DNA of 64,000 bases from a virus (Duplodnaviria; Caudoviricetes): IMG/VR virus record IMGVR_UViG_2922715855_000002, positions 1 through 64,000 of that record, one strand, 5' to 3'. The position numbers and the translations under genes are program-made. The notes below the pieces were generated by a model. It was not told where the DNA came from, did not search any database, and worked only from the letters and a program-made list of their open reading frames with translations. Of this stretch, positions 1,234 to 41,495 are shown one piece after another. Each line of letters starts with the position of its first letter. Within the stretch, counting starts at the first letter, position 1.

Positions 1234-2172
1234 TTATTTTGGCCAAAACTTAACTTCCACTACTTTGCCAATTATCTTCACGTCTTTTGCTGGAATTAAT
1301 TGAGGCTCCATCGAAGGGTTAGAGGGTATTAACATGCATTTATCATCGTAATACTTTACCCTTTTTAATGTGGCAAAATCTCCATTGACTGCTACTACGG
1401 CAATGTCGCTTGAAAACACTTCATCTTGTCTCGTAACAATAACTAAATCCCCATCATATATACGATCCCCAATCATGCTGTCGCCTTTGACTCGAAGTGC
1501 GAAAGCTTCTTTACCATGCAGTGTTGCAGGGTCGACGAGCGTATATCCTTCACAATACTCTTGCCTATCTATTGGAATTCCAGCGGCAATCTGACCCAAT
1601 ACTGGAACGCGTCTCATATTGTCCGTTGAATAAATAGATGACCTCTCTTTTACATAAGAATTTTTATCATCATTTAGGCTGTATATGAATGATTGAAAAT
1701 CTTTCGGATCGTTTTCTGACATGTTTTCTAGTAGATCACCTAATATTTGTTTAAGTTCTTCTTCGTTTAGGCTCAATAAAAATTCAGGTGAATTAAAGTA
1801 TTCTATAGCCTCATCATTATCTGAATTTTCATTCTCTCCTATGACTTCCACTTGAAGCGGGTGCTTAGCTAACAAGTAAGAAAATAATTTTTCTAGTAGA
1901 GATGCTTTATTGATGGACTCTTTTATCTTTTCAGGCGCCTTTTCTAAATAACCAGCCATAACGAGTGCCTCAACATCTCCACCTGTAATTTCTGCTAATG
2001 CTCTGTTTATTTCTTCTGATGCGGGGTACTTAGGATCTTTCCGTAATTTAGAAATATAAGATCTATCAATCTTGATCCCCTTTAACTCGTGCATCCTCTT
2101 TGTTATTTCAGCAAGACTAAGACCACTTTTCTTGATGTATTCATCAACAAGAGCTGGATAATTCATCTTCAT
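1234..2172 (-). CDS. CI-like repressor with N-terminal HTH and C-terminal S24 (LexA-type) autopeptidase
   Basis: FALRVKGDSM (Ser) and ATLKRV (Lys) S24 motifs; divergent from a cro-like gene. Confidence 0.92.
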   Translation of the reverse strand: MKMNYPALVDEYIKKSGLSLAEITKRMHELKGIKIDRSYISKLRKDPKYPASEEINRALAEITGGDVEALVMAGYLEKAPEKIKESINKASLLEKLFSYLLAKHPLQVEVIGENENSDNDEAIEYFNSPEFLLSLNEEELKQILGDLLENMSENDPKDFQSFIYSLNDDKNSYVKERSSIYSTDNMRRVPVLGQIAAGIPIDRQEYCEGYTLVDPATLHGKEAFALRVKGDSMIGDRIYDGDLVIVTRQDEVFSSDIAVVAVNGDFATLKRVKYYDDKCMLIPSNPSMEPQLIPAKDVKIIGKVVEVKFWPK

Positions 2173-36242: not shown

Positions 36243-36692
36243 ATGGACAAATTCTGGTCCACGATTGTTGGGGCTATTCTGGTACCTGCGTTTAATTTTC
36301 TTTATGGGGGTGCCACCAAATCGATGATGATTGCTTTAATTTTTTTCATCGTCTTAGATTGGATCACTGGTACAAGAGCGGCAAAAAAAGATAATTCATA
36401 TGCAAGTGAGTACGGGATAGATGGCGTATTCAGAACATTCTTTATTTTGTTACTACCTGCGGGAGGTCACTTATTAGATGAAGCATTCGGACTTCCAGGC
36501 GTTTTATTTGGAGCCCTTTGCATTGGCGTTCTATATCACACATTGCAATCCATGATAGCAAATGCTGTAAGGGCTGGTTGGGCAAATTGGTTCCCTGAAA
36601 AGTTACTTATCAAAATTACCGATTGGGTCAAAAGTGAGTTGGATAAGAAGGTTCAGCGTGCAGAAAGTAGGAAAGGGGATAGTGGTAACTAA
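36243..36692 (+). CDS. Holin (phage holin family 4 type)
   Basis: FIVLDWITG motif; transmembrane segments; abuts the endolysin. Confidence 0.88.
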   Translation: MDKFWSTIVGAILVPAFNFLYGGATKSMMIALIFFIVLDWITGTRAAKKDNSYASEYGIDGVFRTFFILLLPAGGHLLDEAFGLPGVLFGALCIGVLYHTLQSMIANAVRAGWANWFPEKLLIKITDWVKSELDKKVQRAESRKGDSGN

Positions 36693-37486
36693 TGCGTATA
36701 CAAGGACAATTTACTTTATTTGATAGAGAAGAATTCGAAGAATGGTTAATGAAGCAATCTTTTAAAAGAAAAGTTGTTCTGATTCAAAATCATCATACAT
36801 GGAGCCCTGATTACAAAGACTTCAACGGAAGTAATCATTTTCAACGATTAGATTCTATGAAGAGCTTTCATATAAACGATCGTGGATTTAGCGATATTGC
36901 TCAGAACTTGACTACGTTTCCAGATGGAATGATTGCGGTGTGCAGACCTTTTGATGTAGCTCCAGCAGGAATAAAAGGAGCTAACTCCAATGGCATATGT
37001 ATTGAGCATTTCGGCAACTTTGATATTGGCGGCGACAAAATGACGGACGAGCATAGAAAAACAATTCTATTCCTTAATGCAGTTCTTTGTAAGAAATTCA
37101 AATTATCTATTAGTACAGAATCGGTTGTATACCACCACTGGTGGTCAACAGATGGTGACAAGGTGTTTAACCTGAAAACTGGTGAGAAGCTAAAGGGTTC
37201 ACCGTCTAAAACATGCCCAGGTACCGCATTTTTTGGTGGAAACACAGTGCTGGATGCACAAAAGAATTTTATACCTTTGATTGCTACAGCTTTCAATGAT
37301 AATGGAGAGGATGAAGACAAATTGAAACTAACTAACTATCAAAAAACGCAATTGATCGAAGTATTAAAAGGATTACTATTGCAAGGTGTTATTACTGATA
37401 AAAGTTGGGTAGATAAAGCTCAGAATGATACATTGACTGTATCCGAGCTTACTTGGCTCAATATGATTGTTATTGCTAGAAAATAA
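36692..37486 (+). CDS. Endolysin, N-acetylmuramoyl-L-alanine amidase (Amidase_2 type)
   Basis: QNHHT, IEHFGNFD, YHHW and KTCPG zinc-amidase motifs. Confidence 0.9.
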   Translation: MRIQGQFTLFDREEFEEWLMKQSFKRKVVLIQNHHTWSPDYKDFNGSNHFQRLDSMKSFHINDRGFSDIAQNLTTFPDGMIAVCRPFDVAPAGIKGANSNGICIEHFGNFDIGGDKMTDEHRKTILFLNAVLCKKFKLSISTESVVYHHWWSTDGDKVFNLKTGEKLKGSPSKTCPGTAFFGGNTVLDAQKNFIPLIATAFNDNGEDEDKLKLTNYQKTQLIEVLKGLLLQGVITDKSWVDKAQNDTLTVSELTWLNMIVIARK

Positions 37487-37489
37487 TTA

Positions 37490-37518
37490 TTTACAAATTT
37501 ATGCAAGTGAGTTAAGAT
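37490..37518 (+). promoter_or_regulatory. SigA-like promoter TTTACA-N17-TAAGAT
   Basis: Read directly; no ORF downstream on this strand. Confidence 0.5.
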
Positions 37519-37524
37519 GACTAT

Positions 37525-37587
37525 ATCAAATCCAGAAGCACTGGTAAAAAGAGCCGTTAGGGAAGTACCCTAGCGGCTCCTTTTTTT
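37525..37587 (+). ncRNA. Candidate ~65-nt sRNA convergent with the accessory operon
   Basis: Promoter, CCAG-AAGCA-CTGG hairpin, then a terminator. Confidence 0.35.
37546..37587. terminator. Bidirectional terminator
   Basis: AAAAA-GAGCCGTTAGGG/CCCTAGCGGCTC-CTTTTTTT. Confidence 0.8.
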
Positions 37588-37598
37588 CTTTCATTACA

Positions 37599-37766
37599 TT
37601 AATATTCTGATTTATTATAAATGTCCTTGGCTTCATCAACACTCTTGAAATCGAATTCGTAGTAAACCGAACGTACCACTTTCTTAATTTCCTCGCGTGA
37701 ATATCCTGCTCGCTGCATGCCTGATATGATGTAACCTAAACAAGCGTTATTGCTCCAGTCTTCCAT
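37599..37766 (-). CDS. 55-aa hypothetical protein
   Basis: GGAGGG RBS; MEDWSNNACLGY...IYNKSEY. Confidence 0.7.
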   Translation of the reverse strand: MEDWSNNACLGYIISGMQRAGYSREEIKKVVRSVYYEFDFKSVDEAKDIYNKSEY

Positions 37767-37785
37767 ATATGAACCCTCCATTTGA

Positions 37786-37869
37786 TTATTTCTTTCGTAT
37801 AACTCTATATAAAGCTATGCAACTGAGAATTAAGGCAGTCAAAGAAACGATCCAGGTAATTACATTCAT
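37786..37869 (-). CDS. 27-aa hydrophobic peptide (MNVITWIVSLTALILSCIALYRVIRKK), not in the ORF track
   Basis: GGAGGT RBS; single TM helix with a basic tail. Confidence 0.65.
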   Translation of the reverse strand: MNVITWIVSLTALILSCIALYRVIRKK

Positions 37870-37899
37870 GATCCATACCTCCGTAGGGGCCGAAGCCCC

Positions 37900-38172
37900 T
37901 TAGTCTAAAATACTTTCATGGCTGATGCTATATTGTTGTTTCAACTTTTCAAAGGCCAAGTCCGTTACTTTATAGCGATGTGTACCGTTGTCACTGCCAA
38001 CAAGCTTTATACCTCGCCCCGAAAGTTCAATTTTAGTTCTTATGAAGTATCCTCCATAGTGCCCGATGGACATTTGAAGCTCGCAATTAGGCTTACGTTG
38101 CCCCATTTCGAGCGTATATGAATGAATACCTCTTGCAATGTTGCTTGCTGGAAATTCAAATATTGCTGCCAT
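37900..38172 (-). CDS. 90-aa hypothetical protein
   Basis: GGGAGG RBS; LSGRGIK...YKVT..AFEKLKQQYSIS. Confidence 0.75.
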   Translation of the reverse strand: MAAIFEFPASNIARGIHSYTLEMGQRKPNCELQMSIGHYGGYFIRTKIELSGRGIKLVGSDNGTHRYKVTDLAFEKLKQQYSISHESILD

Positions 38173-38254
38173 TGTGATCATCCTCCCGATTTATTTTGTT
38201 TAGCATTTATGTTATGATTGGGGGGAGAGGTCTTTCGACCCCTCCGAGGGAACT

Positions 38255-38377
38255 TTAACGTTTGCGTGGGCGCTTCCGTTTGGTTCCTTTTTTGTTGTTC
38301 TTACGGCTTTCTTTGAGTAGTATGTAAGCTGTTATTAGCTGAATGAGAGCCGTAAGAAGTTGTACCCAATCTTTCAT
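38255..38377 (-). CDS. 40-aa holin-like/type I toxin-like peptide (MKDWVQLLTALIQLITAYILLKESRKNNKKGTKRKRPRKR), not in the ORF track
   Basis: AAGGAGGTGA RBS; hydrophobic helix with a very basic tail. Confidence 0.72.
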   Translation of the reverse strand: MKDWVQLLTALIQLITAYILLKESRKNNKKGTKRKRPRKR

Positions 38378-38405
38378 TGCTTGTCTCACCTCCTTATATA
38401 TTCAT

Positions 38406-38466
38406 TATACGATATCGTATAAATAAAGTCAATAGTATTGATAAACTTTATTCGATATCGTATAAT
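38406..38466. promoter_or_regulatory. Palindromic operators over divergent promoters
   Basis: Perfect palindrome TATACGATATCGTATA 38406-38421; CGATATCGTATA 38453-38464 overlapping TATAAT; TTGATA at 38438. Confidence 0.78.
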
Positions 38467-38485
38467 CTTGGTGGAGGTGATTAGG

Positions 38486-38686
38486 ATGATTGTCACGCCT
38501 AAACTAAATGCAATATTGAAAGATCGAGGAATTACTCAAATGAAGCTATCTGAGATGTGCGGGGTCCCGCAGGGGTCTATTTCTCGTTTTGATAAAAATA
38601 CTAGACACGAAGACAGTCATATATTTGCAATCGCTAAAGCATTGGGTATAAAAATTGAAGATTTGTTTGATATAAGAGTTGAGTAA
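38486..38686 (+). CDS. XRE/Cro-type HTH regulator
   Basis: LKDRGITQMKLSEMCGVPQGSISRF...AKALGIKIEDLF. Confidence 0.88.
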   Translation: MIVTPKLNAILKDRGITQMKLSEMCGVPQGSISRFDKNTRHEDSHIFAIAKALGIKIEDLFDIRVE

Positions 38687-38723
38687 CCTATCTTAGGATA
38701 GGTTATTTTTTTGTTCTTGTTTA

Positions 38724-38759
38724 CGAACGTACATTCGCTTATAATGGAAACAAATGTTC
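38724..38759. promoter_or_regulatory. Two near-consensus LexA (Cheo) boxes flanking a TATAAT
   Basis: CGAAC-GTAC-ATTCG 38724-38737 and AAAC-AAAT-GTTC 38748-38759 versus consensus GAAC-N4-GTTC. Confidence 0.6.
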
Positions 38760-39476: not shown

Positions 39477-39701
39477 TCACTGCCGTTTACCTTTTTTTAC
39501 AACAATCCACTGGTACATGTCTTCTGCATGACAATCGAGAATACGTGATGCGAGAACAGCGTTTTCATAAGTCATTTCCCTTTTATTGTTGATCCATCGT
39601 GAAACAGTGGCTTCGGTAACATTTAAACGGCGAGCGAGTTCGGCTTGACTCATATCGCCTAAAAGTTCAGGTAAACGGCATTCTCCTTTGCGGAGTGCCA
39701 T
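39477..39701 (-). CDS. XRE-family HTH protein
   Basis: MSQAELARRLNVTEATVSRWINN. Confidence 0.85.
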   Translation of the reverse strand: MALRKGECRLPELLGDMSQAELARRLNVTEATVSRWINNKREMTYENAVLASRILDCHAEDMYQWIVVKKGKRQ

Positions 39702-39844
39702 GTTTTCCCACCTTGAATGTATTGTTATTTCAGAAAGATTATATAACTATTTATCATTTCTAGTAAACAACAACCCACATTTAAGGACTCATAATCGATT
39801 AACGTTCCAACTGCATTTCATCACATAGAGTAACTGGAGGGTGC

Positions 39845-40039
39845 ATGGTGAAAAAAACGGACTTAGAACAATTGATGGTTGTAATCTCTAATTCAATAGC
39901 TGTTATTAAAAATGAGAAACACATTAATGAAGCTACACAAGGAAAGTATAAATGGGGATATTCGGGTCAGTTGAAAATTATAATAAAAGAAGAAGGTTCT
40001 CCAAATCCGTCAACAACTCGTCAACAACGTCTCGTATAA
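39845..40039 (+). CDS. Hypothetical protein
   Basis: GGAGGG RBS; terminator 40079-40107 downstream. Confidence 0.55.
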   Translation: MVKKTDLEQLMVVISNSIAVIKNEKHINEATQGKYKWGYSGQLKIIIKEEGSPNPSTTRQQRLV

Positions 40040-40107: not shown

Positions 40108-40277
40108 GATAACCCCTAATAAATATTCTGGAGCCCTCTTTCGAGAGCTCCATCATGGGAGAGGATAAACCAAGGTAATACACACTATTACAATTTATCT
40201 CAAAACGCTGATAATAAAGGCGTTATACTATTATTATTGCACACATTGGCATAGTTTAATCATTGATTAAATAAAAA

Positions 40278-40310: not shown

Positions 40311-41495
40311 CTAAACCTTGAATACATCGCTAAATGTATCTGCCGCCTTTGCTTCCGCTGTTCGCATAAGGTGTCCGTACACATCCATTGTAGTTCCTAT
40401 TTTCGAGTGCCCAACACGCTCAGAAATAATTTTCGCATGAATCCCCCGATTGATTAATATAGAAACTGATGTGTGTCGAATATCGTGAAATCTTATATAT
40501 CTAATATGCGGATTTCGGATTTTGATGAAATCCTGCCAACGTTCACGCAGCGTTTTTGGGAAAAGCGGCATACCTAAATTTTTATGGTATCTGATGTTAC
40601 AAAATAAAAAGTCGCCTTCTTCGAACCAAGTATCTTCATTTTCAGACTTCCAACTATCCCAAACTTTCTTGTACTCTTTTAATTCCAATGTTACATAATT
40701 AGGAATAGCAACAATTCGAATAGATCCTTTAGTTTTTGGGCTTTTAACGTGTGGTTTTCCATCAACAAAAACAGGAATGGATTGTTTTATATGGATACAA
40801 TCATTCTCGAAATCGATGTGTTTCCACTCTAACCCAAGTAATTCTCCACGTCTCATTCCTGTTGTGAAGGCGAGGGTGATTAGAGTTCGAAATTGAATGT
40901 TTTCAGATTGTAAAGCAATCATTATTTGTCTTGATTCTTCTTCTGTATATGCATCAACATTAGGGGATGAATTCTCTTTTGGTTTAAGCACATTATCCAT
41001 AGGATTCGGATCGATGTTGTACCATTCTTTTGCTTTTTGAAAAAGGCTTCGAAGAACTCTGTAAGCATATACCCGAGTTGCTTGGCCTACGGGCTTTTTT
41101 TGATTTTTCAATTCAAACATGTCGTTTAAAAACATCACTATATGAATTGTTTCGATATCGTTGAGGTACATATGCTTAAAAACAGGCAAGATGCGACGAT
41201 AGATGTAATTGCTATAGTTTTGTTGTGTAGTCTTCTCCAAGTGTACATTTACATACATTTCCATCCATTGTTCCACGAAGTGTTCAAAATTGATTTTTTT
41301 CATATCTATGTTGTTTGAAATATTTTTCATTAATTCAGCTTCAAATATTACGAGTTCTTTTTCTGCAATGCGTTTAGAGTTCGTATGAACAACTTTTGTT
41401 TTTCTTTTGCGCTTACCGAAAGGATCGTTAATATCTACAACTAGTCGAAACCCATTGTTACGTTTTTCTACCCAACCCAAAATTATCAACTCCAA
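40311..41495 (-). CDS. int: Tyrosine integrase of prophage 2
   Basis: TTGMRRGELLGL, RFHDIRHT and GHSKIGTTMDVYGH motifs. Confidence 0.96.
   Translation of the reverse strand: MELIILGWVEKRNNGFRLVVDINDPFGKRKRKTKVVHTNSKRIAEKELVIFEAELMKNISNNIDMKKINFEHFVEQWMEMYVNVHLEKTTQQNYSNYIYRRILPVFKHMYLNDIETIHIVMFLNDMFELKNQKKPVGQATRVYAYRVLRSLFQKAKEWYNIDPNPMDNVLKPKENSSPNVDAYTEEESRQIMIALQSENIQFRTLITLAFTTGMRRGELLGLEWKHIDFENDCIHIKQSIPVFVDGKPHVKSPKTKGSIRIVAIPNYVTLELKEYKKVWDSWKSENEDTWFEEGDFLFCNIRYHKNLGMPLFPKTLRERWQDFIKIRNPHIRYIRFHDIRHTSVSILINRGIHAKIISERVGHSKIGTTMDVYGHLMRTAEAKAADTFSDVFKV

Follow-up and report, generated by a model that had tools for sequence, protein, structure and literature searches.

What is a cluster of four very small genes doing beside the lysis genes of a phage, with a putative repressor gene pointing away from it? 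The question is raised by positions 37,599 to 38,686 of a 64,000-nucleotide stretch of viral DNA (Duplodnaviria; Caudoviricetes; positions 1 to 64,000 of IMG/VR record IMGVR_UViG_2922715855_000002), here called the window. Four minus-strand genes, p4-p3-p2-p1 in operon order, directly follow the endolysin, and a gene for a 66-residue XRE protein diverges from them. A reading made from the sequence alone (the sequence-only reading) had taken this arrangement for an anti-defence operon of the kind formed by anti-CRISPR (Acr) genes and their anti-CRISPR-associated (Aca) regulators. The cassette is previously undescribed, and nothing was found to link it to a known anti-CRISPR. The window locus was compared with 46 related loci. 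Conserved across these 47 loci are two predicted membrane micro-proteins and an RNA hairpin, while the fold of the regulator is interchangeable. In the explanation we prefer, which we hold with about even confidence, the locus is one copy of a conserved accessory cassette that regulates itself and occupies the lysin-to-att end of temperate phages in a single Firmicutes family (Paenibacillus-like). It would be gated by a repressor and carry a payload that acts at the membrane. An anti-CRISPR role is possible for the cargo and is unsupported for the cassette core.

Conservation of two micro-proteins

The first evidence comes from the distribution of p4, the 40-residue product of the first and most conserved gene. 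The detailed comparisons cover 20 genome loci and 27 viral loci from IMG/VR, and labels such as L085 or L102 denote individual compared loci. Searches with tblastn found p4 in 43 of the 401 genomes of the host's family, spread over 9 of its 19 genera, with a second copy in the same genome as the window, on contig C1. Outside the family, a class-wide genome sample yielded only three weak partial matches. The gene is also present on 27 IMG/VR viral contigs, mostly no more than a few kilobases from a contig end. Neither tblastn of p4, whose tail may be masked by the low-complexity filter, nor megablast of the locus gave a match among 50,697 phage records. The near-invariant parts of the protein are an N-terminal helix (MKDWV..LLTA..Q..TA) and a KKGT motif. 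Divergence by codon position is 0.26/0.16/0.51, which indicates that the amino-acid sequence is under selection; on this ground the idea that p4 is a mere leader peptide was rejected. The helix, a candidate transmembrane segment, bears a conserved polar stripe; behind it comes a polybasic tail, and the protein has a net charge of +11. The 27-residue p2 would likewise have one transmembrane helix, plus a short basic end. The best 18-residue Kyte-Doolittle hydropathy averages are 1.86 for p4 and 2.43 for p2, both above the transmembrane threshold.

The two genes travel together. At 17 of the 20 genome loci and at least 15 of the 27 viral ones, p4 is followed on its own strand by a p2-like peptide of 26 to 31 residues, which either adjoins p4 or stands 0.3 to 1 kb away with unrelated small genes between. 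The smallest cassette, L102, consists of regulator, p4 and p2, followed by the lysin. Because this minimal cassette holds only those two genes on its cargo side, the conserved function can be assigned to p4 and p2. Judged by these comparisons, the cassette core is p4 plus p2, and p3 and p1 are swappable cargo. The second cassette of the same genome, L096 (G000:C1:6826-14945), illustrates the exchange: its p4 (C1:10826-10945) is 90% identical to that of the window and adjoins p2, and its other cargo differs, as do the regulator, which is of ribbon-helix-helix (RHH) type, and the palindrome. L096 has a squalene-hopene cyclase gene at its edge. In the other loci, the cargo is flanked by a lysin or holin and the regulator by an integrase or serine recombinase, the same phage position as that of the window cassette.

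An RNA element behind p4

The GAAA hairpin noted in the window is one copy of an element that lies 3' of the p4 stop codon in all 20 genome loci, with stems of 8 to 12 bp, folding energies of -15 to -26 kcal/mol and a GGAG...CUCC base. RNAalifold on a MAFFT alignment of the hairpin region returned no structure, the stems being out of register; covariation was counted by folding each copy and numbering the pairs from the stem base. Fifteen distinct stems were obtained among the 20 loci. Each of the stem pairs 3 to 10 occurs as at least two different base pairs across the loci, both arms of the stem having changed so that pairing is preserved. Pair 5, for instance, is G-C at 11 loci but A-U at 8. 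A gap of 2 nt, nearly constant (17 of 20 loci), separates the hairpin from a conserved single-stranded tail, CCAAUCUUAACAUAAAC, and this tail element was found in 26 of the 27 viral loci. No match to the hairpin element was found in Rfam. The second hairpin of the window, capped by a UUCG tetraloop, is specific to this locus and is absent where p2 directly follows the p4 element. Both hairpins were considered as intrinsic terminators and rejected in this role, since neither has a U run. The hairpin-plus-tail may instead be a processing or stabilising signal that separates p4 from the cargo.

In seven loci (L089, L090, L092, L093, L100, L101 and L103), the p4 leader contains a short hairpin, some 60 nt before the gene, whose stem shows compensatory changes. 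CGAAAGG comes next, at the ribosome-binding site, and the stem sequence is repeated near the promoter. These loci have a second type of control region.

Control region and exchange of regulators

The two promoter-like sites between p4 and the XRE gene are the best in the region and stand back to back, and the centres of the two operator palindromes that cover them are 43 bp apart (Table 1). The 66-residue protein, we infer, binds both palindromes, closing the cargo promoter first and then limiting its own. It is a second, local regulator, because the main repressor of the prophage that carries the cassette is a separate protein with a Peptidase_S24 domain. A phmmer search of the 66-residue protein against all Protein Data Bank (PDB) chains returned nothing beyond generic XRE proteins (HipB, HigA, 434 repressor), none better than E 0.05, with no Aca or AcrIIA1 chain among the matches.

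What is kept across the family is the architecture and not the regulator itself. A divergent protein of 54 to 85 residues is encoded in 19 of the 20 genome loci, 14 of them HTH_26-like (XRE) and 5 RHH-like, and at every locus a repeat pair of its own overlies a near-consensus promoter. Similar regulators pair with similar operators: L086 and L094 share TAACGAAATTCGTTA, L085 and L096, both of RHH type, share TACTGGTACCAGTA, and operators are likewise shared by L088 and L099 and by L087 and L091. Of the two palindrome copies, the one on the cargo side is perfect in the window, L095, L096 and L102. The two cassettes of this genome differ in both regulator fold and operator.

Locus layout and prophage setting

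The features described by the sequence-only reading were recovered. The four leftward genes of 40, 90, 27 and 55 residues (from the list of open reading frames (ORFs), starts picked by ribosome-binding site) are present with these lengths, and each has the strong ribosome-binding site claimed for it, a GGAGG-type site 6 to 9 nt upstream. Both tetraloop hairpins fold as described, the divergent XRE gene is confirmed, and the perfect palindrome is accompanied by a second copy, so that both promoters are covered. The operon does lie immediately after the endolysin, towards which it is transcribed, with a bidirectional terminator between, common to the convergent rightward lysin and leftward operon.

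Table 1. Coordinates of the cassette and of surrounding features in the window
Feature	Position	Strand	Remarks
Main repressor of prophage A	1234-2172		Peptidase_S24 domain
Phage_holin_4_1 holin of the phage itself	36243-36692		Pfam match
Endolysin, Amidase_2	36692-37486	+	Pfam match
Bidirectional intrinsic terminator	37551..37579	both	12-bp stem, T runs on each strand; -24.2 kcal/mol, z -4.8
p1, 55 aa (amino acids)	37599..37766	-	GGAGG site 7 nt upstream
p2, 27 aa	37786..37869	-	GGAGG-type ribosome-binding site
UUCG-tetraloop hairpin	37885-37900	-	6 bp, -12.2 kcal/mol, no U run; between p3 stop and p2 ribosome-binding site
p3, 90 aa	37900..38172	-	GGAGG-type ribosome-binding site
Conserved single-stranded tail	38206-38221	-	3' of GAAA hairpin; whole element 38206..38245
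GAAA hairpin	38224-38245	-	9 bp, -17.1 kcal/mol, no U run; directly after p4 stop codon
p4, 40 aa	38255..38377	-	First gene of operon; GGAGG-type ribosome-binding site
Leftward sigma-A-type cargo promoter	38432..38404	-	TTGACT-17-TATAAT, 11/12 consensus matches
Operator 1	38405-38422		Perfect 18-bp palindrome TTATACGATATCGTATAA; covers -10 and spacer of cargo promoter
Rightward sigma-A-type repressor promoter	38438..38466	+	TTGATA-17-TATAAT, 11/12 consensus matches
Operator 2	38448-38465		Same palindrome with one mismatch; covers spacer and -10 of repressor promoter
XRE/HTH_26 protein, 66 aa, presumed cognate repressor	38486-38686	+	Pfam HTH_26, E 3e-10
Terminator-like hairpin closing repressor transcript	38681..38708	+	12-bp stem plus T run
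Weak -35 and TATAAT upstream of p123	38717-38745		
Cheo-type LexA box	38724-38737		CGAACGTACATTCG; between weak -35 and TATAAT
p123, 123 aa	38798-39169		phrog_34234

A 43-bp att core occurs in three copies, at -189..-147, 40124-40166 and about 77578-77616 of the window numbering (the last at L002:13578-13616), and the site sits downstream of an HD-domain gene. The three copies delimit two different prophages, A and B, in tandem at one site. The cassette lies within the right arm of prophage A, where it stands between the lysin gene and attR. The integrase at 40311 was considered as belonging to the same phage as the cassette, and this was rejected: it is that of prophage B, which uses the same att with an integrase 44% identical to that of prophage A.

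Several other elements were seen near the two lysins. After the lysin stop codon, a promoter-like TTTACA-17-TAAGAT (37490-37518) points into the shared terminator and would give an RNA of about 60 nt, overlapping only the 3' end of the operon (window 37490-37587). The prophage B lysin is followed by a similar unit (L002:10600-10700), with a converging ORF for a basic protein of 67 residues. The right arm of prophage B encodes a 417-residue minus-strand protein (L002:10979-12232) with a weak match resembling TaqI restriction endonuclease, at E 2.5e-5, below the cut-off. Between the prophage B lysin and attR, a protein encoded at L002:12467-12823 resembles YolD-like cargo ORFs by eye.

Cargo genes and neighbours

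The product of p1 is acidic (isoelectric point 4.9) and soluble, and has a single relative, at 78% identity, among 5.8 billion proteins; it occurs in none of the other compared cassette loci. Its AlphaFold2 model has three helices, with a predicted local distance difference test (pLDDT) score of 70, and matches no fold (best E 1.9). The product of p3 is beta-rich and belongs to an uncharacterised phage family, with 8 close relatives; the closest are 57 to 88% identical. Its profile extends to 330 representative clusters, many of them N-terminally extended, and no Pfam domain was found in the long fused forms. The p3 model (pLDDT 80) has five strands and one helix, and comparison with solved structures gave no match (best PDB Z 3.8, Foldseek E 0.34). 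Fold searches of the PDB with Foldseek, of the viral BFVD and by wide VIA-align returned uncharacterised phage relatives only, the profile gave 0 matches among PDB sequences, and the ESM Atlas gave only clusters of 'hypothetical protein'. In Pfam, PHROGs, NCBIfam and PADLOC, no named family matched any of p1 to p4 above noise.

The distribution of p3 is unlike that of the core. It is present in only 3 of the 20 genome loci with p4, in the order p4-p2-p3 in two and p4-p3-p2-p1 in the window; it was absent from the genomes of 60 relatives, and a search of species genomes gave one locus. About 75 further p3 loci lack p4, p2 and p1, mostly in phages of human-gut Lachnospiraceae, at 45 to 47% identity. 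In L032, L034 and L007, p3 again comes after a divergent HTH_26 gene, and the L034 regulator shares 64% identity with one from a cassette. Two loci, L005 and L033 (5860-6315), have an RHH-like stretch in frame upstream of p3, at a weak Pfam E of 0.002 that is below the curated cut-off. Forms of about 170 residues, with an uncharacterised N-terminal extension, are encoded at L006:5755-6267 and L070:5767-6285, the L070 copy standing between a RelE/ParE-like pair and the terminase genes. Judged by these contexts, p3 is a mobile phage gene that tends to come first under a small divergent repressor.

The next gene after the cassette, p123, has relatives between lysin and integrase in the Paenibacillus larvae phages Tripp, Halcyone, Heath and Scottie. 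The LexA box upstream of it has the same arms as the recA box of the host (CGAATGTATGTTCG, in the opposite-strand reading); because of this match, p123 is probably under LexA control and is probably an SOS-induced prophage gene. Another divergent pair lies at 39477-40039, by attR, and consists of a 74-residue HTH_3 gene on the minus strand and a 64-residue gene on the plus strand. Relatives of the HTH_3 gene recur near p123 and p4 cassettes in L085, L094, L097 and L099.

Proposed mechanism

The accessory-cassette explanation can be set out as follows. The XRE protein would be made rightward and the cargo operon leftward, with a repressor palindrome over each -10 region. As the cargo-side copy is perfect and the repressor-side copy mismatched, the cargo would be shut first and most tightly, after which the repressor would limit itself. 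In an established lysogen, the operon would then be silent, and on entry of the DNA into a repressor-free cell there would be a short burst of expression. The sequence-only reading had predicted just such a burst followed by autorepression, and operators over both promoters make this a fair inference. The payload would consist of two single-pass membrane micro-proteins, p4 with its polar-stripe helix and polybasic tail and p2 with its helix and short basic end. At the hairpin and tail after p4, the transcript would be processed or stabilised, so that p4 is uncoupled from the genes behind it, and the 90- and 55-residue genes would be interchangeable cargo. Our guess is that the two micro-proteins jointly target the cytoplasmic membrane, much as small holins or type I toxins do; such an action would explain the tight gating. 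It may serve to take over the host on entry, to exclude other phages or to kill the cell.

Five points weigh against this explanation. Search filters did not recover p2 in 3 of the 20 genome loci and 12 of the 27 viral loci. Neither p4 nor p2 matches a holin or toxin family above noise, the nearest being p4 with the holin family phrog_920 at E 0.08, and there is no Pfam holin match. The membrane action of p4 and p2 is drawn entirely from their hydropathy and charge pattern. The role proposed for the RNA element is a guess. Lastly, a repressor with no sensor domain leaves the trigger of de-repression in a lysogen unexplained.

Alternative explanations

The first alternative, which we put forward tentatively and consider possible, concerns the conserved parts. 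In it, p4, the hairpin-tail and p2 would be an undescribed phage system, in which a pair of membrane micro-proteins gated by a repressor, together with a cis-acting RNA element, forms the fixed chassis of a cargo-swapping hotspot, with a new mechanism such as a viroporin-like device for entry or exclusion, or with the p4 tail binding the hairpin-tail. In the latter version, the Arg/Lys-rich tail may bind the hairpin-plus-tail, by analogy with N-type peptides on nut sites, and so control expression of the cargo.

The sequence-only reading of the locus as an Acr/Aca-like operon is a somewhat unlikely explanation. It would have small proteins such as those of p3 and p1 inhibit a host defence on entry, with the divergent repressor in the role of Aca and p4 and p2 as accessories. 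Part of this reading stands. The locus is an autonomous accessory operon at the lysin-to-att end, with burst-then-repress architecture, beside the lysin and on the opposite strand, and the small cargo between the conserved genes is highly variable and mostly uncharacterised in the 20 loci, as would suit an anti-defence island. Repressor and operator specificities have diversified, with two in this genome, which fits escape from cross-repression by resident prophages. An inverted repeat, the perfect 18-bp palindrome predicted to be an operator, does lie over the -10 and spacer of the cargo promoter. The anti-defence part fares less well. As the sequence-only reading had itself remarked of the window proteins, none matches a known Acr; neither p1 to p4, searched in Pfam, PHROGs, NCBIfam and PADLOC, nor the 41 cargo ORFs of the other loci showed likeness to an Acr, Aca or anti-restriction family. 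The expected neighbours did not appear, no known anti-defence gene being found among those 41 ORFs, and the p3 model has no match among solved structures, which would still allow an Acr-like fold. The host genome, which is 100% complete, has no Cas1 match and no CRISPR array (none of more than 4 repeats). The minimal cassette L102 carries p4 and p2 only, which assigns the conserved function to this pair. The regulator is not co-transcribed at the operon end; it is divergent, with its own promoter and terminator, as are its counterparts at 19 of the 20 genome loci, and regulator folds are interchangeable between loci.

A prophage cell-killing module, for abortive infection or addiction, is an unlikely third possibility. 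Here p4 and p2 would be membrane toxins held by a labile repressor, whose loss or titration, for example on superinfection, would kill the cell. Both proteins are toxin-like in having one transmembrane helix and a basic end, a very strong promoter and ribosome-binding site lie under a perfect operator, XRE and RHH are folds of type II antitoxins, and the location is among prophage morons. Against these likenesses, the genes are divergent with separate promoters and do not form a co-transcribed toxin-antitoxin pair, no known toxin family is matched, Rfam searches gave no antisense antitoxin RNA family, and there is no sign that the repressor is unstable. Least probable, indeed quite improbable, are genes for lysogenic conversion or superinfection exclusion with low, self-limited prophage expression, whose micro-proteins would block DNA entry by other phages or alter the envelope: the membrane location inferred from hydropathy, the prophage end as their typical place and the steady low expression that an autoregulated promoter pair would yield fit this account, but the perfect cargo-side operator suggests silence rather than steady expression, and no likeness to known exclusion proteins was found.

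Implications

The comparison turns a guess about a single locus into a family, defined by two paired micro-proteins, an RNA element that covaries and sets of matching repressors and operators, and present in roughly a tenth of the genomes of a large bacterial family associated with soil and insects. The micro-proteins and the RNA element are absent from Pfam, PHROGs, NCBIfam, PADLOC and Rfam, and p4 and p2 are smaller than most annotation pipelines report. The cargo-swapping hotspot could be a source of new accessory genes of phages, some of them perhaps anti-defence genes. Its many orthogonal pairs of small repressors and operators are also ready-made regulatory parts.

Comparison with known systems

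Small prophage peptides are known from Bacillus subtilis, where the type I toxins BsrG (with SR4) and YonT (with SR6) are controlled by overlapping antisense RNA. The cassette resembles them in encoding prophage peptides, theirs of 30 to 60 residues, with one transmembrane helix, here a predicted one, and a basic C-terminal end. It differs in that a protein would repress the promoter, and Pfam, PHROGs and Rfam gave no match. The arrangement of repressor and operon recalls dicA-dicB of the Escherichia coli Qin cryptic prophage, which belongs to a different phylum and is what remains of a lambdoid immunity region. There, a small XRE repressor gene diverges from an operon of tiny phage genes that are toxic or modulate the host, and the prophage keeps this operon silent; the cassette would follow the same plan. 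Sequence relation goes no further than a weak helix-turn-helix (HTH) match to DicA (E 0.04), and p4, p2 and the hairpin have no counterpart there.

The acrIIA loci of Listeria adjoin lysis genes. They have a strong promoter with a palindrome bound by the N-terminal HTH domain of the autorepressor AcrIIA1 (bioRxiv 10.1101/787200). Shared with the cassette are an accessory operon of small genes, a temperate Firmicutes phage and a palindrome at the promoter. In Listeria, however, the HTH is encoded in the operon and fused to an anti-Cas9 domain, whereas here it is a separate divergent gene; the host here has no CRISPR-Cas, the conserved genes encode predicted membrane micro-proteins, and there is no sequence match to AcrIIA1 or Aca structures.

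More generally, aca is normally the last gene of an acr operon and its conserved marker. In operons under Aca1, Aca2 and others, inverted repeats overlap the promoter, and expression comes in a burst followed by repression (PMC9410906, PMC8633003). An inverted repeat over the operon promoter is common to those systems and the cassette. Unlike an Aca protein, the regulator here is divergent and has either an XRE or an RHH fold. The conserved marker is thus the reverse of that in Acr/Aca loci: there it is the regulator, and here it is the micro-proteins of the cargo side.

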